Assembly (NCBI GenBank): GCA_024654505.1
Contig: JANLHN010000003.1
Span: 68,314-132,313, forward strand
DNA from: Nanobdellota archaeon
Lineage (GTDB): Archaea; Nanobdellota; Nanobdellia; Pacearchaeales; GW2011-AR1
Direction: 5' to 3'
DNA length: 64,000 nucleotides
The translations under genes and the position numbers were made by a program. Shown in pieces: positions 2,290 to 38,684 of this stretch. The notes beneath the pieces are model-generated. The model saw only the letters and a program-made list of their open reading frames with translations, did not search any database and was not told the DNA's origin. How positions within the stretch are numbered: position 1 is the stretch's first letter; each line of letters starts with the position of its first letter.

Positions 2290-4926
2290 CTAAGACTTTT
2301 TGGTTTCCTTATTTATACTTAAATCTCCTCTTTTCACTTTCATAATATCAAAAATTAATACTATGATTAATGAAGCAACAAAAGCTACCAAGATGTTCAT
2401 TGGTCCTATTGGAGTGGTCTCAAATGCCTTATTTAGGGGGGTATAAATGATTAGGGCTGTCGCAAATAGGGAAATTATTGAAGCATAAACAAGGGGTTTA
2501 TTTACTAGGGGAGAGCGATTCAAAACTCCCTTTCTAAATGACCGAAAATTAAAGGCATGTGCTATTTCAAATAGGATGAGCGTTAATAGGGCTGTTGTTC
2601 TTGCTACAATGAGCCCTTGATTTAAAATATTCAGAACAAGGTAGAATACCCCTAGAGTAATAATCCCCATGGTGGCTCCTCCAGTTAAAATTAATAAAAT
2701 GAGTTGCCTATCTAAAATATGGGACTTTTTTCGAGGTTTTTTGTTCATTACATCTTGAGAAGAAGGATTAAATCCTAGAGTAATTGCGGGAAGATTATCC
2801 GTAACTAAATTCATGAATAGGATTTGTAGAGCAAGCAAAGGCAAGGGTAATCCTAAAAGAATCCCTAAGAATATTACCAAAAGTTCGGCATAATTACACG
2901 AAAGTTGGTAAGTAACAAATTTTTGGATATTATTAAAAATTGTTCTACCTTCTTTGATTGCATAGACTATTGTGGCAAAATTATTATCTTTTAATGTTAA
3001 ATCTGCTACCTCTCTTGTGACATCTGTTCCTCCAATACCCATTGCGACACCAATGTGTGATTCTTTTAATGCAGGGGCATCATTAACACCATCTCCAGTC
3101 ATCGTTACTATCTCTCCATGTTCTTTTAATGCTCTAACGATTCTTAGTTTATGTTCTGGTTTAACTCTTGAGAAAATAACAGCACTTTTAACAATTCTAA
3201 ATAACTCCTTATCACTCATTTTGTCTAATTCTTCTCCATCAAAAATCTCTCCTCTTTTAAGATTGATTTGGTTTGCTATAGCTATCGCGGTTTCCTTGCT
3301 GTCTCCTGTTATCATTTTTATGTTTATCCCGGCAGCATAACACATTTTTATGGCTTCTTTTACTTCTTCCCTTGGAGGATCTTCCATCCCAACTAACCCT
3401 AAAAAAACCAATTCTTGTTCAAAATGGTCTTTATTTATTTGTTTTATTTTTTTGTAAGCAATGGCAATAGTTCTAAAAGATTTTGAAGTTAATTTTAGAT
3501 TCATTGTTATTATTTGTTTTTTGTCTTTCTCAAGAAGGGTGAAGATACCTTGTTCTCTTTGAATGTATTTACAATTCTTTAGGAGAACCTCAAGGGCACC
3601 TTTAGAGTATACATAATTCCCATCTTTTTCTTTAATTGCTACAGACATAATCTTTCTCTCTGAATTGAATGGTATCTCTTCTCCTCTTAAAAAATTTAAA
3701 TCGTCTCGGAAAATTCCAGCCTTTGCTGAGGCAATTAATAATGCCGCCTCTGTGGGGGTTCCCCTCATAAGGTATTCATTATTCGTTCCCTTTCTTTCAA
3801 TTTTAGAATCGTTACATAACACTCCAGCTTTTAGGAGAAGATTTAACGAGTTATTCTTCTTAATATCTATCTTTTTATTGTTACATAAAAAATCTCCTGT
3901 TGCCTCATAACCCGCTCCTGAAACTTCAAATAATTGATTATCACAGAAGATATTTTTCACAGTCATTTCCCCAGAAGTGATAGTTCCTGTTTTATCAGAA
4001 CATATAACTGTAGTTTCACCAAGAGTTTCAATAATTGACATTCGGTTAACTATTGCATTCTTCTGAGCCATTCTATATGCTCCCGTAGCCAAGGTCGTCA
4101 TTAGAACTACAGGAAATCCTTCTGGAAATGCCGAAACCGATAGGGCAATTACAACCATTAAAATATCTATTATTAATTCTGAAGATATGGAGGTACTTTG
4201 GATTAGCATTACAATTCCAGTTAAGATTGAAACAGTTAACGCTACAATGACCATATATTTAGTAAGGTTATTAACTTTTTTTTGTAGTGGAAGTTCTTTT
4301 TCGGCTGCCGAAATCATTCCAGCTATTTTTCCAAATTCAGTATTCATCCCTATATGCAAAACTCGGGCTACACACCTTCCATTAACAATCAAAGTTCCCA
4401 TAAATAGTTGACTTTCTCTTTTGTAATTTCTCCCACTTTTTGTTCCAATTTTCTTTATTTCTTGGGATTCTCCAGTCAATATTGCTTCATTGACTCTCAG
4501 TTCTTTTGCTTCTAAAACAAGACAATCTGCGGGTATCTTTTCTCCCGTTCTTAAAATTAGTATATCTCCTGGAACAATTTCTCTAGAAGGTATCTCAATT
4601 TCTTTTCCTTCTCGAACAACTATTGAAATTGGCATAATCATTTTTTTCAATGCAGAGATTGCTTTTTCGGCTCTATATTCTTGGAAAAATCCGACACCCA
4701 CTATAATAATTATGACTAACAAAATTGTGAATGCTGTAATAGATTTGCCAACAAAAAACGAAAGAAATACTGCTATAACTAACAAATATACAATAAAATT
4801 GTTTTTTATTTGTCTCAAAAGAATTTTTAATGGGGAAATTTTTAGGAGCTCTACCAATTCATTGGGTCCATATTTTCTAGACCTTTTTGTAACCTCTTTT
4901 TCTGTTAAACCTTTCAATTTTTCCAT
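2290..4926 (-). CDS. P-type cation-transporting ATPase (P2, Ca2+/cation pump-like)
   Basis: 878 aa. CSDKTGTIT phosphorylation motif, MITGDSKETA and TGDGVNDAPALK hinge motifs, about 10 TM segments. Confidence 0.85.
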   Translation of the reverse strand: MEKLKGLTEKEVTKRSRKYGPNELVELLKISPLKILLRQIKNNFIVYLLVIAVFLSFFVGKSITAFTILLVIIIIVGVGFFQEYRAEKAISALKKMIMPISIVVREGKEIEIPSREIVPGDILILRTGEKIPADCLVLEAKELRVNEAILTGESQEIKKIGTKSGRNYKRESQLFMGTLIVNGRCVARVLHIGMNTEFGKIAGMISAAEKELPLQKKVNNLTKYMVIVALTVSILTGIVMLIQSTSISSELIIDILMVVIALSVSAFPEGFPVVLMTTLATGAYRMAQKNAIVNRMSIIETLGETTVICSDKTGTITSGEMTVKNIFCDNQLFEVSGAGYEATGDFLCNNKKIDIKKNNSLNLLLKAGVLCNDSKIERKGTNNEYLMRGTPTEAALLIASAKAGIFRDDLNFLRGEEIPFNSERKIMSVAIKEKDGNYVYSKGALEVLLKNCKYIQREQGIFTLLEKDKKQIITMNLKLTSKSFRTIAIAYKKIKQINKDHFEQELVFLGLVGMEDPPREEVKEAIKMCYAAGINIKMITGDSKETAIAIANQINLKRGEIFDGEELDKMSDKELFRIVKSAVIFSRVKPEHKLRIVRALKEHGEIVTMTGDGVNDAPALKESHIGVAMGIGGTDVTREVADLTLKDNNFATIVYAIKEGRTIFNNIQKFVTYQLSCNYAELLVIFLGILLGLPLPLLALQILFMNLVTDNLPAITLGFNPSSQDVMNKKPRKKSHILDRQLILLILTGGATMGIITLGVFYLVLNILNQGLIVARTTALLTLILFEIAHAFNFRSFRKGVLNRSPLVNKPLVYASIISLFATALIIYTPLNKAFETTPIGPMNILVAFVASLIIVLIFDIMKVKRGDLSINKETKKS

Positions 4927-9679: not shown

Positions 9680-10140
9680 AGGCTTGGAAGTGGCTTGGGT
9701 CTTGGACGTTCAGAGCCAAGGGGCATTGAAGGAACCATTTCTGGGGCCTCGGACCTACCACGTAGTTTTCCCTCCATCAAGACTAAACCTTTGGCAATAG
9801 TTTTATTTTGGTCTAACAAAGAATTTATTTTTGTTATCATTTCTCTATCATCTACCTTTCCACCATGGGCTAGGTTCAATGCGGACTCTTCAAAAACTCT
9901 TAGTAATCCAGTAATGTTATCTGATAAAGCACCAAATTTTATAGAAAGATTTGTCATCGCATGTTGTAACCCGACGAAGTTTTCAATTAATAATTCCTCT
10001 CTCTCGCTGGCAGTCATTCTTTTTTTCTTGGGTTTTGAACTTGAAATATTTTTTGGAGCATGTTCCTTAACAACTGTTTTCTTTGTTCCGTCATGAGAAG
10101 TTGTCTCAGTAATAGTTCTTTTTACCACCCTCTTTACCAT
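9676..10140 (-). CDS. hypothetical basic / coiled-coil protein
   Basis: 154 aa. Lys-rich N-terminus, 4-nt overlap with the downstream ORF. Confidence 0.3.
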   Translation of the reverse strand: MVKRVVKRTITETTSHDGTKKTVVKEHAPKNISSSKPKKKRMTASEREELLIENFVGLQHAMTNLSIKFGALSDNITGLLRVFEESALNLAHGGKVDDREMITKINSLLDQNKTIAKGLVLMEGKLRGRSEAPEMVPSMPLGSERPRPKPLPSL

Positions 10141-18101: not shown

Positions 18102-18925
18102 CTTTTCACCTCCATCTCTTTAGCTATAAGGAAACATTCTTCATTTAAATCTTTTCTGTCTCGAACGAAGATGAGAATATCTCCTCGTTCGGCATAAACC
18201 TCTTTTTCACCCTCTTTCCCTACCAAGGTTTTTTCTTCCATCTTTTCAAAATCTGCAAAATCTCTTGTTTTAATGAATGGAGAGGTTTTATTTTTGTAAA
18301 GAAAAATTATCTTTAGATATTCTTTTTTCTGGGTTGGTTCTATAGTTCCTTCTATGTTCTCTGCTTTGATTAAAAAATTCATTAGGGCTGCTTCTGCCCT
18401 CTTCTCTGATTCTGAATCTCCCAAATATCCTCCCTCAAATCCCATTGCAATTTTATTTTGAAGATTCATCCAATATTCTGTGGAACCCGGTTCAAACCCA
18501 TCCCAATTTGTAGTTATTAATTTACATGGCATCGACTTTGCAAATTCAAGACTTTGTGGTTCACAAACAATAAATGGTTTGGAATCCATACTATTACTAG
18601 CATGTAAATCTAAAAGAAAGTCTGCTTCGTTCAAATAGGGAATTATTTCTCTTGCTGTTTTTGCTTCTAAAGTATTAGACAATTTTTCAGGCAACTCTTT
18701 CATAAATGCTCTGTTGAGATTCATTCCAATAAACCTTTTACCTTCCTTGATTGCTTCTAAGTTAGCATAGATAAAAATAACTTTTCCGTTACTAATCTCT
18801 ATCGTTGTAATTATTCTATCAAATAGTTTGATGTTTCCAACCTCATTGCCATGCACTCCTGCAAGGACTACAGATGTCTTTCCAGGGTTCTTTCCAATTT
18901 TCTCAATTACTTTGATATTATTCAT
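18098..18925 (-). CDS. succinylglutamate desuccinylase/aspartoacylase-family zinc hydrolase
   Basis: 275 aa. VLAGVHGNEVGN zinc-binding motif of the AstE/AspA family. Confidence 0.65.
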   Translation of the reverse strand: MNNIKVIEKIGKNPGKTSVVLAGVHGNEVGNIKLFDRIITTIEISNGKVIFIYANLEAIKEGKRFIGMNLNRAFMKELPEKLSNTLEAKTAREIIPYLNEADFLLDLHASNSMDSKPFIVCEPQSLEFAKSMPCKLITTNWDGFEPGSTEYWMNLQNKIAMGFEGGYLGDSESEKRAEAALMNFLIKAENIEGTIEPTQKKEYLKIIFLYKNKTSPFIKTRDFADFEKMEEKTLVGKEGEKEVYAERGDILIFVRDRKDLNEECFLIAKEMEVKR

Positions 18926-19607
18926 TTTTCATCCCCCCATTATTTTCCCAACAAAACCAAGGGGTTCCATTTTTTGGATCGTTAAAAAGTTTTCTTCCTG
19001 ATCCAAAAGTGGTGTCCATGATTTTTAGCATAGCAGGATTTATAGTCCTATTGCAAATAAAAGAAAAATCATCTTTATCAACTTTCTCAAATCTTCTTGT
19101 TGAGACCAATCTTCCAAGACCCCTTCCTTGGAATTCATCAATCACTCCAGTTTCAGCACAATAAAATGCTCTTTCTGGATTGATTCCTCTTTCTTCAAGC
19201 AAGGGCCTCACTTTTTCGAAATCTACACTTTCTGTTCTTGTTTTAGGAATTTTATATCCCCAACTAAATCCAACTAAACTTCCACAAACATTTACTAGAT
19301 ATCCAACAAATCCAGATAATTGAATTGCTTCATCAATAATCTTTTCTTGATCTACTTTCTCAGGATAATAATCTACTAATCTAAGGGGATTTTCACATGA
19401 AGGGCAATATGTTCCATAATATGGAAGAAAAAAAGTATTTTTTCTTTTGTCTTCTCTTATTCTAGGATTCCCACTAAATTGAGCTTTACACCCAGCCGTA
19501 GAACAGGCCCTATCTTCAAACCACGGCGCACCACTGAAAACACTTTTATAGAGTTCATAACAATCTTGCTTATTATCCTCTGTCAAAGGAACAATGAACA
19601 TAATCAC
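18918..19607 (-). CDS. GNAT-like acetyltransferase with N-terminal Cys-rich segment (probable)
   Basis: 229 aa. AETGVIDEFQGRGLGRLV resembles GNAT motif A. Cys clusters CxxC near the N-terminus. Confidence 0.4.
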   Translation of the reverse strand: MIMFIVPLTEDNKQDCYELYKSVFSGAPWFEDRACSTAGCKAQFSGNPRIREDKRKNTFFLPYYGTYCPSCENPLRLVDYYPEKVDQEKIIDEAIQLSGFVGYLVNVCGSLVGFSWGYKIPKTRTESVDFEKVRPLLEERGINPERAFYCAETGVIDEFQGRGLGRLVSTRRFEKVDKDDFSFICNRTINPAMLKIMDTTFGSGRKLFNDPKNGTPWFCWENNGGMKNE

Positions 19608-19644
19608 AGCGTTTAAGCACTACCATGTTATTCTCCAGAAAAAA

Positions 19645-19886
19645 GGGTGGAAGCCGAGAATCTACTCACAATTTGCATCTCGCAATCAGATAAATCTTGA
19701 AATAAATCTTGATTAGATTGCTCAAAGCGAATTGTTCGCTCGGGCAACGCCCTCCTTCGATTCTTTAATTCAAGGGTGGAAGCCTGTTCGCAAAATGCAT
19801 CTTGGAAAAATCTATTTTCATTTGTTTTCCTCGAAGCGTTTTGCTCAAATCGAACTGTTCGATTCTTTAATTCAAGGGTGGAAGCC
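19645..19886. repeat. direct repeats of the tRNA-His 3' end and trailer (possible att-site remnants)
   Basis: The 27-mer cgattctttaattcaagggtggaagcc occurs at 19758-19784 and again at 19860-19886, where it spans the tRNA 3' end. The 18-mer gggtggaagccgagaatc (tRNA acceptor/T-arm) recurs at 19645-19662. An extended ~65-nt imperfect repeat starts at 19722 and 19841. Confidence 0.6.
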
Positions 19887-19948
19887 GAGAATCGAACTCG
19901 GGCTGTTCGGACCACAACCGAACGTTCTGCCACTAAACTACATCCACC
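19877..19948 (-). tRNA. tRNA-His (anticodon GUG) with encoded G-1
   Basis: Reverse complement folds as a cloverleaf. G-1 + GUGGAUG acceptor (one U-U mismatch), D-arm GUUU/AGUGGCA/GAAC. Anticodon stem UUCGG/CCGAA with loop UUGUGGU. T-arm CCGAG-UUCGAUU-CUCGG. Discriminator C pairing G-1. Confidence 0.75.
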
Positions 19949-20254
19949 ACAGCGTGCCCCACCGAATCTAAATAATAAATTTGGTAGAGTATTGTTAACA
20001 CTATTTAGTTGAAAATAAGATATAAAAAGATTGGGATTCGCTTTGGAGTTAATACTAGGTTGAACTACTTGTTCAGAAGTGCCGATAACTCCGTGTGCTT
20101 ATCATGTTTAAACTAATGATTGAGGGTTTTTAAAACTTCTGAATAGAAGTTTTAAACATGAAACATCTTCCTCTAGACCCACTCAGTAGATGTTACTTTT
20201 TAAGATTAACTAATCAATGAGAAGTTTTTAATACTTCTAAATTATAATCTCCTC

Positions 20255-21979: not shown

Positions 21980-24202
21980 ATGGCAAAAGATTTTGATATA
22001 ATCGATATGGATGATGAGAAGACAGGAACATTCGCTGAGGCGTTGAAGAATGAAACCTCTAGAAAAATTCTGAATTATTTGAAAAAGAATAAATCTACTA
22101 TCACCGATATTGCCGATTCACTAAAGTTGCCTGTTTCAACAGTTCATTATAATATTCAAAAGTTGCAAAAAGCAGGTTTAGTAAAAGTTCATGATTTTCA
22201 CTGGAGTCCAAAAGGAAATAAAGTTTTTATATATACAATTTCTAATAAAGTAATGGTTTTCAGACCAGACAAGATGCCTTTCTTAGAGGTACATATGAAG
22301 GCAATATTGTCTATATTTTTGGTGGCAATAGCTTTAGTTGCAATAGTCGCTTACCCTTTTAATTCAAACGACGAACCAACAATGTTAAATAAGTTTAACA
22401 AATTTAGTTCTGAGAAGGAATTGCTTGATGCTCTTGAAAGTGCGAAGGATTCTGGAGGCTTTGGGGATATGGTCTTTGCTGCATTCGGTGGAGCAAAACT
22501 TGCTGTAATGGAAACTGCTGCGACAAGTAATGTTGGTGGTTCTTCAGGAGCTGATTATTCAGAAACGAATGTTCAGGTTGCAGGAGTTGATGAAGCAGAC
22601 ATCATCAAGACTGATGGAGAATACATTTATGCAATCTCTGATGGGAAATTAATAATCGCTAAAGCTTATCCAGAAAGTTCGGCAGAGATTCTTTTTGAAG
22701 GAAAAGTTGGGGATTTTTATGCTAATGAATTGTTTATTGGTGATGATAAGATATTAATCTTTGGAACAAAAGACTATCCTCAGGAAAATTATGGAAAAAT
22801 GGGAATTGCTGTTGGAGAAAGAATGCCCTATTATTATTCTCCTAGTGTGTCTGTAAGACTTTTTGATGTTTCAGATAGGGAAAATCCCGAACAAATCCGG
22901 TCTCTTGAATTTGAAGGGGGTTATATTACTTCTAGGATGATAGGCTCGGACGTTTATTTTGTTGTGAATTCATATCCCTCTTATGAAGATTGGGTTTGTG
23001 GAGATGTTGTTCCATTATATGCTGAAGCAAGAGGTGCAACTGAAATAAAATCTACAGACCTTGTGCCTATAGCTCCTTGCACAGATATTGGTTATATAGA
23101 CCATACCCCTACGCAAAACTTCCTTACATTAGCCTCAATTTCAATTGATGATGAAAATAAAGAAGTTGAGAAAGAAACAATTTTGGGATATGGGGAAAAT
23201 GTTTATGCATCTATAGATAATCTTTATATTGCTCAGACAAATTGGAACTTGGGTGACGAAAAACAAAAGACAGTTTTAACAAGATTCAGTTTAGATGATG
23301 GGAAAATTGAGTTTGAAGCGAATGGAGAGGTTCCAGGCCACATCTTAAATCAATTTTCTATGGATGAGTATGATAACTATTTTAGGATTGCTACAACCGT
23401 TGGAGAGGTTTGGAATTCTGAAGAAAAGTCAACAAATAATGTTTATGTATTAGACGAAGATTTGAAGATAACTGGAACTCTAGAAGGCCTGGCACCTGGA
23501 GAATCAATTTATTCAGTGAGGTTTATGGGAGACAGAGGATATGTTGTTACATTCAAGAAAGTTGACCCATTATTTGTAATTGATTTGGGGGACACTAGCA
23601 ATCCCATGGTCCTTGGAAAATTAAAAATTCCTGGTTATTCTGATTACTTGCATCCTTATGATGAAACACATCTTATTGGAATTGGAAAAGATGCTGTGGA
23701 TGCTGAAGAAGAATTGAGTGATGCTAGAAATTTGGATTTTGCATGGTATCAAGGTGTTAAAATGGCAATCTTTGATGTCAGCGATGTAGAAAATCCTATT
23801 GAAATGTATAAAGTTACAATCGGGGATAGAGGAACAGACTCTGAAGCTCTTCATAACCATAAAGCATTTTTGTTTGATAAAGAAAAGGAACTTTTAGTAT
23901 TACCAATAACTCTTGCCGAAATACAGGGAGAACAAAAAGAAGACAACCAATATGGAGATATAACATTTCAAGGTGCTTATGTTTATAATTTAAACCTGGA
24001 AGATGGGTTTGAGTTGAGAGGTAGAATAAGTCATCACGATTCAGAAAATGATTACCTAAAGTATGGTTACTATCCTGATTATAATTATAATATTCAAAGA
24101 AGCCTTTACATTGGAGACATCCTTTACACTCTATCAGGTAAAAGGTTACAATTGAATGATTTGGATAGCTTAGAAAAGTTGAAGATTTTGAACTTTATTT
24201 AA
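21980..24202 (+). CDS. membrane-anchored protein: N-terminal winged-HTH (ArsR-like) + TM helix + extracellular beta-propeller domain
   Basis: 740 aa. N-terminus ETSRKILNYLKKNKSTITDIADSLKLPVSTVHYNIQKLQKAGLV is HTH-like. TM helix at ~aa 105-125. The long C-terminal region matches the archaeal secreted beta-propeller family. Confidence 0.55.
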   Translation: MAKDFDIIDMDDEKTGTFAEALKNETSRKILNYLKKNKSTITDIADSLKLPVSTVHYNIQKLQKAGLVKVHDFHWSPKGNKVFIYTISNKVMVFRPDKMPFLEVHMKAILSIFLVAIALVAIVAYPFNSNDEPTMLNKFNKFSSEKELLDALESAKDSGGFGDMVFAAFGGAKLAVMETAATSNVGGSSGADYSETNVQVAGVDEADIIKTDGEYIYAISDGKLIIAKAYPESSAEILFEGKVGDFYANELFIGDDKILIFGTKDYPQENYGKMGIAVGERMPYYYSPSVSVRLFDVSDRENPEQIRSLEFEGGYITSRMIGSDVYFVVNSYPSYEDWVCGDVVPLYAEARGATEIKSTDLVPIAPCTDIGYIDHTPTQNFLTLASISIDDENKEVEKETILGYGENVYASIDNLYIAQTNWNLGDEKQKTVLTRFSLDDGKIEFEANGEVPGHILNQFSMDEYDNYFRIATTVGEVWNSEEKSTNNVYVLDEDLKITGTLEGLAPGESIYSVRFMGDRGYVVTFKKVDPLFVIDLGDTSNPMVLGKLKIPGYSDYLHPYDETHLIGIGKDAVDAEEELSDARNLDFAWYQGVKMAIFDVSDVENPIEMYKVTIGDRGTDSEALHNHKAFLFDKEKELLVLPITLAEIQGEQKEDNQYGDITFQGAYVYNLNLEDGFELRGRISHHDSENDYLKYGYYPDYNYNIQRSLYIGDILYTLSGKRLQLNDLDSLEKLKILNFI

Positions 24203-25196
24203 CGCTAAAAATAGCCTGAGCAATTTTCTCAACGAGTTCTGGTTGAATATAATGATGGAGGGTTACCTGATAGGAATCTTCCCAATTGCCAGATTTTTTA
24301 GAGAATTTTTTATGTCCTAGTTTTTCAGCAATTTTAATATAAAGTTTTTTAACCTCTTGTTTACTAGGGTGTTTATTCTTTTTGATAAATTTGTTGGCCT
24401 CTTCAGTTGCGTAATGAGAACGGACTATATGAGGGTAAAATTTTTTCCCACAATATCTTTCAAATGCTTTTTCAAATTCAGTGTCTTTTAGTGGATGACC
24501 AGAAAGATTGGTAAAGATAAAATCATTTTTACTTTTTGATTTAAGTATTTGTTTCAGTTGGTTAATTATTTCATTAGAAAAAGTTTCTGTTGTTTTTTGA
24601 GGAACGCCGTCTTTTGCAATATAATCGAATGTTACTTTGTTACCATAGACTTTGATGTTATTTTTCTTTAATGTAGTTAGACCTTTATGTTGGTTCTTAT
24701 TGTAATAAATTTCATTTCCAACACGCATTTTTGTTTTGAGGAGAATCAACATTGGAAGTGCGAGACTATCTTCTCTTAAGACATTCATAAGATTTTTCTT
24801 AAGGCGAGGAAGACATTTTGCGAATTCTGAGACTTTTTTATATTTCGATTCTTTAGAGAGTTTTCCTTTCTCTAAGGTATAAAGATAGGCGTAACTTCCA
24901 GAGGGATTTTTATAAATTACATCCCAATGAGAATGAGATTTCTCGTCGTGGATTTTTAAATCTGGTGAAAAAAGAGAGTAGTATTGATTTAATACCTGCC
25001 CATCTGGGAGAATATTAATTCTATTCTTTAGGAATTCTTTGTCTTTTGGATCTTGAATCAATTGGAGATTATTATGTTTTTTGAATAGTTCAATCACTTC
25101 AATTGCATTGGGAAATTCTGTTAAAGACTTTTTCCATGTTCCGTTAGAAAATTCTAATACAGAGAGATTTGGTTTGATTTTGTATGTTGTCACCAT
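24195..25196 (-). CDS. DNA topoisomerase IB (poxvirus/eukaryotic-like type)
   Basis: GNEIYYNKNQHKGLTTLKKNNIKVYGNKVTFDYIAKDGVPQ parallels vaccinia topo IB GNAKY...GLLTLKNKHIEI...FVGKDKV. C-terminal TLHHYIQPEL corresponds to the SKxxY catalytic-Tyr region. Start taken at the internal Met (25196). The upstream ORF extension covers the att repeats and is probably not coding. Confidence 0.6.
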   Translation of the reverse strand: MVTTYKIKPNLSVLEFSNGTWKKSLTEFPNAIEVIELFKKHNNLQLIQDPKDKEFLKNRINILPDGQVLNQYYSLFSPDLKIHDEKSHSHWDVIYKNPSGSYAYLYTLEKGKLSKESKYKKVSEFAKCLPRLKKNLMNVLREDSLALPMLILLKTKMRVGNEIYYNKNQHKGLTTLKKNNIKVYGNKVTFDYIAKDGVPQKTTETFSNEIINQLKQILKSKSKNDFIFTNLSGHPLKDTEFEKAFERYCGKKFYPHIVRSHYATEEANKFIKKNKHPSKQEVKKLYIKIAEKLGHKKFSKKSGNWEDSYQVTLHHYIQPELVEKIAQAIFSVK

Positions 25197-25230
25197 CTTT
25201 CTAAGATAAATACTTGCACCTTTATAAAAA

Positions 25231-25286
25231 TGCTCCCGCCTCGGCAATCGAAGATTGCACCCTCTGGTCGCTATGCTCCCGCCGAG
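25231..25286. repeat. putative attL: two partial direct copies of the tRNA-Glu 3' end (atgctcccgcc[g]) flanking a 15-nt hairpin
   Basis: 25231-25240 tgctcccgcc and 25274-25286 tgctcccgccgag match the 3' terminus of tRNA-Glu (36765-36777, tgctcccgccggg) over 11-12 nt. Hairpin gcaatcgaagattgc lies at 25244-25258. Confidence 0.5.
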
Positions 25287-25763
25287 TAAATCGCCAGCTT
25301 GGAATTTGCAGGGACGCAATTTTATTAAGATTCTAAGAGATCGCCTATTTTTAAAACTTGTCAATGCTGATTTATATTCTCCAATAGAGCATTTTCTATT
25401 ATTATAATTCAACACTTAATATAAACAGATAATGTTGTTTTAAAGAAAGACTTCTTCGCCAAAGCATGAATCAAAAATATCTCAGTAATACCTCAGAAAA
25501 AAATCTGAGATATCCCTTTAAGGAATTTAAAAATAAAAAAAGGCAATAAAAAATATGGAAAAAAGCAGAGTCACAATTACTAGGGGAATATTATGGGGAT
25601 CCACCCCTAGTAATCCTTTAATGTGCTTAAAATGGGGGCAGATTTAGCTTTAAAATGGAACCAGAAATAGTAAGCCAGCAAATAAGCAGAACATTGGAAG
25701 AGATGATTTCAAAATTAAAATTTATGATAGAAGAAATAGAATATCAAATCAAAGCAATTCACG

Positions 25764-25964
25764 ATGGCAAGGAAAAACACAAAGATTCACTTCGTAATTG
25801 AAACTTCAACTAAAGAGCTTTTGATAAGGGAAGCTCAAATGCAAGAAATTTCTTTAGCGGAGTTATGTAGGCAGAAACTAAAAAGAAATTCAAAATTAAT
25901 CAAAATTGAGATGATGTTAGAAGAATTAAATAAAAAACTTATAGAAAATGGCAAGATCCAATAA
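25764..25964 (+). CDS. ribbon-helix-helix (CopG/Arc-like) DNA-binding protein, probable
   Basis: 66 aa. N-terminal beta-strand then helix pattern KIHFVIETSTKELLIREAQMQEISLAELCRQKL. Immediately upstream of orc1/cdc6 on the island. Confidence 0.4.
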   Translation: MARKNTKIHFVIETSTKELLIREAQMQEISLAELCRQKLKRNSKLIKIEMMLEELNKKLIENGKIQ

Positions 25965-25976
25965 AGGCATAGATAA

Positions 25977-27164
25977 ATGCCCAGCTCCGATGGGATCTTT
26001 GAATTTAAAGGCGTTTGTGGGGCGATCCTGGGCTGTTTGTGCGGTTATTTTAGCCAAGGTGTTAGAATGATACTAAAAGATAAGGGTGTCTTTGACATTA
26101 ACCGCATTCCTTCGGTTATTCCTGTAAGAAATAATTTAATTGAAGAAATAGTAAATAAAATAAGATTAAGCGAGGTTTATCGGCTCTTCATTAGCGGAGT
26201 AACGGGGAACGGGAAAACAAGTTCTGTAAAAAGAGCTTTAGAAATTTTAGGTAATGAAATTATTCCAGTTTACATAAATTGCTCTGAAACAAATAGCTAT
26301 ACTTCAATTTCAAAACACATCCTTGAAATTGTAAGAGATAAGCCTTTTAGTGAAAAAGGAAAAAATAGAGATGAACTTGCTGATGAATTAAAAAGAATGC
26401 TTTTAACTAAAAGAACAAAGAAATTAGTTTTTGTTTTTGATGAAGTTGATAAACTAATAGAAAAGAAAGATAATCATGTGGATATATTCTCTCCGTTACT
26501 CAATTATGGGAAAGTTAGTTTTATTCTTATTTCAAATGATCCAAATATCTTTGGAAAAATGCAGGGAATGTTAAGAAGCAGGATGCAGTTAGAAGTTAAA
26601 ATGCTAAGTGCCTATCAGCCAGGCGATATTCTTGAAATATTAAAACAGAAAGCAGAAGAGGGTATGATTGAGGGAAGTTATGATATTGAAACCCTCGCAA
26701 CAATATCTAAGTTTAGCTCAGATATTTGGGGAGACATAAGAGTTGCAATAAAACTTTTAGAAAAAACAGCAGTTATTACAGAAATGCTTGGAAAAGATAA
26801 AATTTCAGAAGAAATTATTAAAGAAGCAATAAAGGACTTGCAGATGTCTGAAATAGATAAAGTATTTCCAACTCTTCCAAGGCATTTAAGATGGGTTGTT
26901 GTTGCTTTATGTTTAGAGTCAAGAAAAAATAATGGCTTTGCAGTCACATACCCAAACGCCTACGAAACCTATGGTTTACTTGCCCAAAAGGAGCGGTTTG
27001 GTAAGGTTGGAGATAGGCAATATAGAGCTTATTTAGATGATTTAGAAATGTTAAGGCTTTTTGATTTTCAATGGAAGCCTGCTGTTAATCGTCGTGGAAG
27101 GGTTAGAATAGCTATTCCCAAGTTTGATTTTGAAAGCTTTTTAGTTGGCATTTCTGCTGAATAA
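25977..27164 (+). CDS. Orc1/Cdc6-family AAA+ replication initiator (island-encoded)
   Basis: Walker A GVTGNGKTSSVK, Walker B LVFVFDEVDKL, sensor-1 ILISND, C-terminal winged helix. True start probably Met at 26067 (MILKDKGVFDINRIP...). Confidence 0.7.
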   Translation: MPSSDGIFEFKGVCGAILGCLCGYFSQGVRMILKDKGVFDINRIPSVIPVRNNLIEEIVNKIRLSEVYRLFISGVTGNGKTSSVKRALEILGNEIIPVYINCSETNSYTSISKHILEIVRDKPFSEKGKNRDELADELKRMLLTKRTKKLVFVFDEVDKLIEKKDNHVDIFSPLLNYGKVSFILISNDPNIFGKMQGMLRSRMQLEVKMLSAYQPGDILEILKQKAEEGMIEGSYDIETLATISKFSSDIWGDIRVAIKLLEKTAVITEMLGKDKISEEIIKEAIKDLQMSEIDKVFPTLPRHLRWVVVALCLESRKNNGFAVTYPNAYETYGLLAQKERFGKVGDRQYRAYLDDLEMLRLFDFQWKPAVNRRGRVRIAIPKFDFESFLVGISAE

Positions 27165-27318
27165 CGGAGATGAAGGGCACATGGGGGAGTGGGCTTCGCT
27201 TCCGTTAATACTCTTATACTCATATTAGAGCGAATAACGGAGTAATGGAATAAGATAATTAAGCTAAAAGAAAGATTTATAAACATATTATATTTCACCT
27301 AATAAGGTGAATTAAGCT

Positions 27319-27921
27319 ATGAATAAGATAGATACAATTTTAAGAGAAGCAAAGGGTAAAATCCTTACAAGAAAAGATTTTGATAGCTTGGCAACTAAGT
27401 ATAAATTTGATAAAGATACATTAAGAAAGGTCATGTTAAACAAAGGTTATCTAATAACTATTTTTAGAGGAGTTTATTATTTAAAAGATTACGAAGAAAA
27501 GAAATTAAATTCTTTAAAATATTCCCCTTATGAGTTATTAGCTCTCGGCTTGGAAAAGAAAGGAATTAAGTGGTATTTTGGTTTGAATACTGCCTTAAAG
27601 TTTCTTGGCTTAACTCATGAAGTTTTTCCAGTAAACATAGTAGTTAATGATAAGTTTAATAGAACAAAGCCAATGAAAATAGCTGGCTCTAGTTTCTTTT
27701 TTGTAAAATTAAAACCTTCTTTATTCTTTGATATAAAGAAAGAAAACACAGCAAATGATATATCTCTTTATTATAGCAATATAGAAAAAACTCTCTTAGA
27801 CTTGATTTACCTAAAGAAAGAGGTAGACCTAAAAGAATATAAATTTAATAAGTCGCTTTTTCTTAGGGAATCAAATAAATATAATAGAATAGTCAAAAAG
27901 AAAATAAAAGAGATGCTATAA
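27319..27921 (+). CDS. AbiEi-like antitoxin (type IV TA / abortive-infection partner), probable
   Basis: 200 aa, N-terminal wHTH-like region. Stop overlaps the start of the AbiEii-like gene (ATAATGG), the canonical AbiE operon layout. Confidence 0.5.
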   Translation: MNKIDTILREAKGKILTRKDFDSLATKYKFDKDTLRKVMLNKGYLITIFRGVYYLKDYEEKKLNSLKYSPYELLALGLEKKGIKWYFGLNTALKFLGLTHEVFPVNIVVNDKFNRTKPMKIAGSSFFFVKLKPSLFFDIKKENTANDISLYYSNIEKTLLDLIYLKKEVDLKEYKFNKSLFLRESNKYNRIVKKKIKEML

Positions 27922-38394: not shown

Positions 38395-38514
38395 GAGCCT
38401 ATAGCTCAGCCTGGTTTAGAGCGCCGGTCTTATAAGAATGGGATTCGTTAGAATCTTAGCATTTCTTCATTCGAAGAAAGCCGGAGGTCCTGGGTTCAAA
38501 TCCCAGTAGGCTCA
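38395..38514 (+). tRNA. tRNA-Ile (anticodon UAU) with ~44-nt intron at the canonical 37/38 position
   Basis: Exon 1 GAGCCUA-UA-GCUC-AGCCUGGUUUA-GAGC-G-CCGGU-CUUAUA. Intron carries its own 5-bp hairpin ucuuc/gaaga. Exon 2 A-GCCGG-AGGUC-CUGGG-UUCAAAU-CCCAG-UAGGCUC-A. Anticodon UAU read from positions 34-36. Confidence 0.55.
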
Positions 38515-38605
38515 TGTATGCAATCTTCGATTGCATAATGCCTAAATGAATTGAACTACGTTCAACCCTGTAGGGGGTTCTGGTGAACCCATCCCAGTAG
38601 GCTCA
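38500..38605 (+). repeat. direct duplication of the tRNA-Ile 3' end 91 bp downstream
   Basis: atcccagtaggctca (15/15) occurs at 38500-38514 and 38591-38605. A degenerate copy of the preceding variable/T-arm region and the shared 16-mer tgcaatcttcgattgc (38519-38534) lie between them. Confidence 0.55.
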
Positions 38606-38684
38606 TAGAAAAGATTTGACCCGGTAGGCACATGTTTAACTAAAGTATAATAATTCTTAAAAACTCTCATTTATCCAATTAGGT

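Follow-up and report, generated by a model that had tools for sequence, protein, structure and literature searches.

Hairpin modules between copies of tRNA 3′-ends in a DPANN archaeon, possible miniature derivatives of tRNA-integrating elements

Introduction

The 3′-ends of tRNA genes are the classic landing pads of integrative elements, and the attachment site (att) copies left there are usually dismissed as scars. Sublocation classes of tRNA-gene integration sites, at the T-loop and at the 3′-end, were reportedly defined by Williams, and archaeal integration of the pNOB8 type with decayed remnants is said to have been described by She and colleagues. Elements without an enzyme of their own are known as well: the cis-mobilisable elements (CIMEs) of Streptococcus are att-flanked, integrase-less derivatives of integrative and conjugative elements and are kilobases long, and miniature inverted-repeat transposable elements (MITEs) are non-autonomous transposon derivatives with a target duplication of fixed length made by the transposase. 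Folded hairpins act as recombination sites in the integron attC and the CTX-phi attP. Here we describe a 64,000-nt stretch (the window) of contig JANLHN010000003.1 from a Nanobdellota archaeon, in which the gene for tRNA-His(GUG) is followed by partial copies of its own 3′-end, and the DNA between them consists of two tandem units of a conserved ~100-nt module, designated M, each ending in a tRNA-His 3′-end copy.

In several respects the locus resembles the tyrosine-integrase islands of tRNA genes, namely the insertion at a tRNA 3′-end, the regenerated tRNA, the old end displaced as a direct repeat of 13–20 nt and the stacking of copies, and a bona fide island lies in the same window; unlike such islands, the M unit is ~100 nt long and gene-free, with a hairpin that is conserved across tRNAs and genomes rather than arbitrarily decayed. 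With CIMEs and MITEs it shares element ends without the enzyme, flanking recombination sites, inverted arms, a variable interior and a patchy distribution, but it measures ~100 nt instead of kilobases, and its tRNA-end ‘duplication’ varies in length instead of being fixed. Similarly to attC and CTX-phi attP, M forms a long, imperfect hairpin whose apical loop varies, is associated with a tyrosine recombinase and base pairs the core T-stem strand with an inverted copy, whereas sequence similarity, a cassette array, signs of single-strand recombination and an integron integrase are all missing. Like archaeal non-canonical tRNA introns and split-tRNA leaders, it has a hairpin in a T-arm-like context, bears a weak likeness to one tRNA-His intron and occurs in a DPANN lineage; unlike them, it offers no usable bulge-helix-bulge, lies outside the functional tRNA and is followed by a 3′ piece too short for an exon half. 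A literature search returned no description of such a module.

Results

Exact copies of the tRNA-His 3′-end bound two module units

The window has ~34% G+C, encodes Orc1/Cdc6, topoisomerase IB and histidyl-tRNA synthetase (HisRS), and includes an intron-containing tRNA; exact look-ups of its proteins returned no database record. Positions are given in window numbering; tRNA-His is on the minus strand, hence ‘downstream’ corresponds to lower coordinates. In the order of transcription, the locus comprises the following features.

19876–19947, minus strand: tRNA-His(GUG), called by ARAGORN and by Rfam RF00005 (60 bits), with G-1 encoded at 19948.
19874–19893, minus strand: repeat copy 1, an attL-like core made of the last 18 nt of tRNA-His plus TT.
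19785–19873, minus strand: unit X1, a decayed copy of M, which starts with gaattaaagaatcgaa and contains the hairpin AATCGAAcagTTCGATT then TTGAGCAA and the right-arm remnant GATGCATTTTGCGAACAG.
19772–19784, minus strand: repeat copy 2, ggcttccaccctt, a partial core without gattctc.
19663–19771, minus strand: module M2, a well-preserved copy of M, assigned by homology to the modules of loci L017, L019 and L020 (nhmmer E = 7.8e-18), palindrome statistics and folding.
19757–19765, minus strand: inverted T-loop copy of M2, AGAATCGAA.
19739–19745, minus strand: T-stem 5′ copy of M2, gcccgag.
19716–19735, minus strand: left arm of M2, ACAATTCGCTTTGAGCAATC.
19688–19715, minus strand: A+T loop of M2, 28 nt.
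19668–19687, minus strand: right arm of M2, GATTGCGAGATGCAAATTGT.
19663–19667, minus strand: gagta of M2.
19643–19662, minus strand: repeat copy 3, gattctcggcttccaccc followed by tt, an exact 20-mer; the displaced ancestral tRNA-His 3′-end, an attR-like core.
19608–19644, minus strand: ancestral trailer, with a T6 run (19639–19644), then ctggagaataac, then the start region of a 229-aa gene.

The 29-mer ggcttccacccttgaattaaagaatcgaa, composed of 11 nt of the acceptor 3′ strand and 18 nt of trailer, occurs at 19858–19886 and, as copy 2 with its next 16 nt (to 19756), exactly again at 19756–19784, an offset of exactly 102 nt. The 20-mer gattctcggcttccaccctt, in which TT follows the 18 tRNA nucleotides that run from T-loop G57 to the discriminator, is shared by 19874–19893 and 19643–19662, an offset of exactly 231 nt. 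An earlier sequence-only reading of the window had reported a 27-mer repeated about 100 bp away and an 18-mer repeated about 230 bp away; repeats and distances were right, and both lengths fell 2 nt short. Past the end of tRNA-His the minus strand continues as ttgaattaaagaatcgaa. The sequence GGGTGGAAGCC was found exactly at three sites in the 64 kb (19645, 19774 and 19876), and allowing one mismatch added a fourth at 673, giving four matches versus 0.37 expected, a number that none of 100 shuffles reached. The two inter-repeat segments, X1 and M2, are homologous and alignable; because they have diverged with indels, Tandem Repeats Finder reported nothing at the tRNA-His repeats.

As at an attL/attR pair, a direct repeat of the tRNA end bounds inserted DNA and the tRNA is intact. 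The 231-bp bounded segment contains no integrase gene and holds artefactual open reading frames (ORFs) alone. Three ORFs, at 19628–19933 (minus), 19732–19971 (plus) and 19776–20012 (plus), overlap tRNA-His and the repeats, and since the duplicated peptide STLELKNR mirrors the DNA repeat, it is reasonable to take these ORFs as artefacts, as the sequence-only reading had done. That reading had also seen no adjacent integrase, and none was found within ±5 kb of the repeats; the nearest is 15.6 kb off, at tRNA-Glu (35508–36746).

Relatives retain the empty site

The 229-aa gene (18918–19607) downstream of the repeats has few relatives, with 42–49% protein homology, and their contigs all carry tRNA-His just upstream. 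In locus L007 (49% identity) the tRNA end ...tttcaccc is directly followed by ttttggaggcaatgcttaaatg...ctgattatcttcatt, a trailer that was also aligned as cacccttttggaggcaatgcttaaatg...ctgattatcttcatt; its counterpart in the window (tttttt ctggag...tgcttaaacgctgtgattatgttcatt) stands after the last repeat copy, not after tRNA-His itself. The same succession of tRNA-His end, then directly T-run, GGAG and orthologous gene was seen in L007, L008 and L009, and the more distant L001, L003 and L004 agree with the L007 arrangement. Because the tRNA-adjacent trailer of the relatives is orthologous to the trailer after copy 3, copy 3 together with the T6 run is the original tRNA-His end and terminator, and 19663–19893 (equivalently 19643–19873) is an insertion of ~231 bp bounded by 20-nt direct repeats. 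The att-like insertion of stacked copies at the tRNA 3′-end, which had been proposed from the repeated tRNA end in the window, is thus borne out by the direct repeats and the empty sites in L007, L008, L009 and others.

All loci that share the window tRNA-His 3′-end are from metagenome-assembled genomes (MAGs) of Woesearchaeota, Pacearchaeota or Nanoarchaeota, which places the source of the window among the DPANN archaea. Nine species-representative genomes with the exact end were compared (L010–L018). HisRS starts 10–60 nt after tRNA-His, with no downstream copy, in L010, L013, L015 and L016. Nor is there a copy in L011, where a phosphatase gene follows tRNA-His first, like in the window operon, or in L018 within the 79 nt of available downstream sequence, which is too short to show the next gene; L012 has a small gene between tRNA-His and HisRS. 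L014, the closest HisRS relative (70%), is not assessable for M, as a run of exactly 100 N after tRNA-His (~3391–3490) renders the spacer up to the HisRS start unreadable. The N run, possibly a scaffold gap or masked sequence, occupies the position in which an M module would lie. The ninth genome, L017, carries M although its HisRS is 54% identical to that of the window, while the closer L016, L010, L015 and L013 (58–62%) are without it, so that the distribution of M is patchy. Across a survey of 21 tRNAs, downstream copies of at least 15 nt were detected only at tRNA-His and tRNA-Ile of the window, tRNA-His of L017 and tRNA-Phe of L019, all others being at most 9 nt. The refuting condition set by the sequence-only reading, namely that relatives carry these repeats as a conserved structured RNA or a promoter array instead of variable scars, gave a divided answer: most relatives lack the repeats, which are variable as scars would be, but one carries the same conserved structured module.

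Module M recurs behind different tRNAs

In L017 (Nanoarchaeota B62T1B5) two cores lie 159 nt apart behind tRNA-His, and between them is a homologue of the second unit of the window. A two-arm pattern derived from the window/L017 homology retrieved the metagenome contigs L019 and L020. In L019 the module stands behind tRNA-Phe, and its final sequence, gattccctctcgtcccatt, is the 3′-end of that tRNA, not of tRNA-His; contig L020 starts inside the module and runs into a third tRNA-like end. M is therefore found at different tRNAs, always with a copy of the cognate 3′-end. The order common to the modules is a 7–8-nt direct copy of the cognate variable-loop/T-stem 5′ strand (gcccgag, ggcccgag or gtcgaggg), cga, the left arm ACAATTCGCTTTGAGCAATC, a variable loop, the right arm GATTGCGAAATGCAAATTGT, gagta, and finally the end of the cognate tRNA, which begins at G57, reaches the discriminator and is followed by TT. 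The arms are ~90% or more identical between the window and the L017, L019 and L020 copies, and the 20-nt inverted arms pair with each other at 16 of 20 positions, with the cognate T-stem closing the hairpin. The loop, in contrast to the arms, varies in sequence and in length (3–36 nt), with 16–28 nt in four M copies and 3 nt in reduced versions. Near-terminal inverted repeats around a short variable interior, as in MITEs and repetitive extragenic palindromic (REP) elements, are accordingly a property of M.

X1 is the less well preserved of the two window units: the M profile (nhmmer) matches its left arm at 19841–19861 with E = 0.19, its right arm is recognisable, a T5 run is located at ~19807–19811, and its fold has z = −2.2. 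The sequence-only reading had concluded that the element or elements are gone from this site; instead, a defined hairpin module occupies the space between the repeats, with arms conserved in L017 and present behind tRNA-Phe in L019.

No Rfam 15 family was matched by M, for only tRNAs reached the threshold and a permissive search gave chance-level hits to snoRNA and miRNA families (E ≥ 1.5). No match to phage and plasmid collections was obtained by blastn of the tRNA-His region, and when the M arms were translated in all frames, concatenated and searched in a set of 5.8 billion proteins, none of 7 word candidates scored. The k-mer sharing of modules with cognate versus non-cognate tRNAs was uninformative, as T-loops are universal.

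Reduced modules occur at tRNA-Ile and tRNA-Glu

The palindrome GCAATC-N-GATTGC is present three times in the 64 kb versus 0.06 expected, and is in every case flanked by a tRNA 3′-end and a copy of that end further downstream, at tRNA-His, tRNA-Ile and tRNA-Glu, the first being the apex of M2. The other two mark reduced modules, so that modules of this kind are found at three of the four tRNAs of the window.

38515–38605, plus strand: reduced module behind the intron-containing tRNA-Ile(UAU) (38395–38514).
25231–25284, minus strand: reduced module at the far end of the tRNA-Glu island.

The tRNA-Ile module has a perfect 9-bp palindrome, TATGCAATCttcGATTGCATA (38517–38537), 5 nt past the tRNA-Ile end, and comprises two hairpins built of T-loop sequence and its complement, a 15-nt tRNA 3′-end copy at 38591–38605 and a degenerate third copy at ~38620–38633; it folds strongly on both strands (z = −3.4 sense, −4.9 antisense). 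The tRNA-Glu module consists of copy A, CGGCGGGAGCATA (25272–25284), 31 nt with GCAATCttcGATTGC (25244–25258), copy B, gaGGCGGGAGCA (25231–25242), and a T-run. With the island taken out, the order is again tRNA-Glu, 31-nt palindrome module, 3′ copy, T-run and next gene, an architecture that is the same as at tRNA-His. An identical 15-mer, GCAATCTTCGATTGC, is shared by the tRNA-Ile and tRNA-Glu sites. In addition, the 406-aa ORF of the topoisomerase IB gene (24195–25415) has an N-terminal extension of ~73 residues that translates the tRNA-Glu end copies and the palindrome; its real start is probably the ATG at 25195, after the T-run and a TATA-like tttataaa.

An integrase island with inverted arms occupies tRNA-Glu

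25285–36762, minus strand: complete integrated island of 11.5 kb at tRNA-Glu (36764–36838), identified by Pfam domains, composition and repeat.

The island is low in G+C and bounded by the 13-nt direct repeat CGGCGGGAGCATA of the tRNA-Glu end. Its tyrosine integrase (35508–36746) begins 17 nt past tRNA-Glu, and the remaining cargo includes a D12 DNA methyltransferase, DUF6339, an AbiEii toxin and UPF0489. Its ends carry inverted-repeat arms, P′ (36734–36757) and P (25294–25318), with a score that 3 of 2000 shuffles reached; the ends of the L022 island are likewise mutual inverted repeats next to the cores (0 of 2000 shuffles), so both islands with definable ends, those of the window and L022, have such arms. 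The window has only two occurrences of the motif ATTGCG-N3-6-GCAAATT, one in the right arm of M2 and one in the island P arm (there as ATTGCG-N5-GCAAATT); they share their orientation, and each lies a short way upstream of a tRNA-end copy.

The integrase is a member of a large and uniform DPANN family of 2280 database proteins (E ≤ 1e-10), the top hits, more than 100 proteins of ~385 aa, being 59–66% identical; where the organism is named, it is nearly always a Nanoarchaeota or Pacearchaeota MAG, and one entry is labelled Methanococcoides. Sampled members are located directly after tRNA-Glu (L021) or tRNA-Asp (L022–L030, L032 and L033). A 16-nt repeat of the tRNA-Asp end was found 7 kb away in L022 and L024, no repeat was found within 10 kb at the L032 and L033 loci, and no relatives of the integrase were found in viral contigs. 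Contig L034 combines a family-B DNA polymerase, nucleases, a restriction-modification pair and a family integrase with no tRNA before it; the integrase is instead preceded by caTGCTCCgggtagtctcggcaGGAGCAtg (9955–10003), which has a 27-nt palindrome fusing the 5′- and 3′-ends of tRNA-Glu. This palindrome may be the attP of a free element, and its position before the integrase indicates that the attachment regions of this family can be tRNA-like mini-structures.

Discussion

Origin of the modules

The explanation that we favour, with about even confidence, is that X1 and M2 are stacked miniature, integrase-less derivatives of tRNA-integrating elements. Under this scheme, elements with tyrosine integrases of the abundant DPANN family would use the 3′ part of tRNA genes as their recombination target; the element would supply its own copy of that part, keeping the tRNA intact (attL), and the original tRNA 3′-end would be displaced downstream (attR) with the old terminator still behind it. 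Full elements have inverted-repeat arms beside both cores, and in M the cargo would have gone and the arms would abut, forming a long hairpin with a variable loop; cargo loss from an inverted-arm element would hence leave a hairpin between two tRNA-end copies, as M looks. The unit could have been doubled when a second integration followed the first at the regenerated tRNA end, or when the direct repeats crossed over unequally, and the two units would then have diverged. Three points of this scheme are inferences: the making or moving of M by the integrase family, the equation of its hairpin arms with integrase-binding arms, and the order of events.

Several observations weigh against this explanation. 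A full-length element with M-type arms was not found, and M had no match in phage and plasmid collections or in viral contigs, the latter scanned with the tRNA core, core plus trailer, two-arm pattern and single arms. In blind alignment the M right arm was only marginally similar to the island P arm (p ~0.05), and other comparisons between M and island arms by blind local alignment were not significant. The cognate T-stem 5′ copy (gcccgag, ggcccgag or gtcgaggg) stands just left of the hairpin, which makes M look like a T-arm with a hairpin in place of the T-loop and differs from a P′-loop-P fusion. The duplicated length varies among 12, 15, 19 and 20 nt, and the ~68–83 nt duplicated in L017, trailer included, are unlike the product of one clean site-specific event; a circle of 110–130 bp is also too small for easy double-stranded recombination. 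Moreover, under successive integration the tRNA-adjacent X1 is expected to be the younger unit, yet it is the more decayed one, and the 15-mer shared by the Ile and Glu sites is left unexplained.

A bolder form of the same idea, which we put forward only tentatively and consider doubtful, is that M represents a self-contained class of miniature mobile elements for site-specific integrases, the counterpart of MITEs. It would be a ~100-nt hairpin with nothing but recombinase arms and a T-arm/acceptor mimic of its target tRNA, using the huge DPANN family of tRNA integrases in trans, perhaps with the folded hairpin as the recombining form, like attC and CTX-phi attP. By copying the cognate T-stem and 3′-end it would retarget among tRNA-His, -Phe, -Ile and -Glu.

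Unlikely, although the most probable of the rival explanations, is that M belongs to a different type of palindromic mobile repeat (REP/REPIN- or MITE-like), which a transposase or repair with template switching would move, which would target the conserved tRNA T-loop or 3′-end and duplicate it, and which would have no relation to the tyrosine integrase. Arms matching at 16 of 20 positions around a hypervariable loop would suit such a repeat, as would the 15-mer common to two tRNAs and the inverted and direct T-loop copies within the modules (AGAATCGAAC, TTGAAC/GTTCAA and GGGTTC/GAACCC), and variable duplication lengths fit repair or copy-choice better than a fixed crossover. However, no transposase was detected among the 30 window ORFs scanned with Pfam, the only three palindromes in 64 kb are all at tRNA ends, the duplication is set by the tRNA boundary without a fixed stagger, and a target duplication of fixed length, as for MITEs and REPs, was not seen, nor, within the window, were many dispersed copies; the integrase is the only recombinase there with a demonstrated taste for tRNA 3′-ends.

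Still less weight is given to M as a functional structured RNA, which would be co-transcribed with the tRNA as a T-arm/acceptor mimic and processed by RNase P and RNase Z, which would give the downstream mRNA back its native 5′-end or regulate it. The L019 module does fold as an acceptor-like stem, cognate T-stem and long hairpin (z = −2.8), T-stem pairing and tRNA covary (CCGAG/CUCGG for His, GAGGG/CCCUC for Phe), the window copy tolerates a G·U wobble when read in the tRNA sense, and the module is always placed between a tRNA and a co-oriented gene with a T-run after the last copy. A conserved RNA is nevertheless at odds with the patchy distribution among relatives, the missing Rfam match and equally good folding of both strands. 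When the 5′ part of the module was paired as a ‘minihelix’ with the cognate acceptor strand, non-cognate or shuffled pairs gave duplex energies at least as good; in L017 one arm pair has changed on both sides to G·G, which is not compensatory; transcription should end at the T5 run in X1, ahead of M2; and the Glu mini-module is without the 5′ acceptor-like strand.

It is improbable that the modules descend from an intron-containing or split tRNA, with the hairpin as a relic of a tRNA intron and the following piece as a truncated 3′ exon. This idea arises from the canonical 37/38 intron of the L012 tRNA-His, which is collinear with both M arms (ATTCGCTTTtgaCAA ... AAATGCAAATcGcGA) and is exactly what the M profile matches within the 659 kb searched, and from the position of the hairpin inside a T-arm copy, as in a T-loop intron. 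But the similarity to this intron is weak (E = 3.9; p = 0.01–0.2 in shuffles), and a scan calibrated on it yielded no in-register bulge-helix-bulge, the one good motif, of the tRNA T-arm with ccgagCGAAcaaTTCG, being such that it would destroy the tRNA. The copies cover positions 57–73 only and provide no functional 3′ half, for which 38–73 is needed, a full tRNA-His is present, and the same architecture at tRNA-Phe would require identical decay twice.

A local tandem duplication of the tRNA 3′ flank, in which slippage or unequal exchange would act without foreign DNA, the other origin offered by the sequence-only reading, is very improbable, since, for all that units of 102 and 129 nt lie head to tail with an exact 29-mer in common and the 159-nt period of L017 includes trailer sequence, the inter-repeat sequence has no source in the ancestral locus, the same sequence lies behind tRNA-Phe with that tRNA's end on an unrelated contig, Tandem Repeats Finder reports no array, and L019 and the empty sites refute slippage as the origin, although unequal exchange probably contributed to the doubling of the unit. 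The sequence-only reading was thus right in what it observed, the repeated tRNA-His 3′-end, and partly right in how it interpreted it.

With miniature integrase-less elements as the favoured origin, what has the position of a ‘scar’ here is a conserved structured ~100-nt unit behind different tRNAs, in genome-reduced DPANN archaea with a large conserved family of tRNA-targeting integrases. Should M be mobilised in trans, it would provide a minimal substrate for defining recognition by these uncharacterised archaeal integrases; it would also mark where integration took place in the past and supply pseudo-att sites on which islands can stack. For annotation, ORFs across such regions are to be treated as artefactual, as exemplified by the 101-aa ORF here and the N-terminal extension of topoisomerase IB.

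Other features of the tRNA loci

A tRNA-His gene directly upstream of, and co-oriented with, the HisRS gene was observed in many DPANN genomes (L010, L013, L015, L016 and L017; also L001–L004, L011, L012 and L014; 16498–19947 in the window), and in the window and the L001–L004 group one or more small genes lie between the two. The arrangement suggests that tRNA-His and HisRS are co-transcribed, a tRNA with its own synthetase.

Two tRNA genes were missed by ARAGORN and found by Rfam: tRNA-His of L012 (6479–6606), whose intron at 37/38 is 56–57 nt long, and tRNA-Glu of L021 (9755–9922), with an unusually long intron of ~95 nt.

About 320 nt downstream of tRNA-His in distant relatives lies an isolated T-arm-like sequence, gagttcaattctc (L001, 1368–1395), which has 9 nt in common with the T-loop and is possibly an old fragment or a chance match. 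On the upstream side of tRNA-His in the window, A+T-rich inverted and direct repeats were noted at 20102–20242, before a gene for a 118-aa membrane protein; the pair TTTAAAACTTCT/AGAAGTTTTAAA is perfect, and a second copy follows ~98 nt further.

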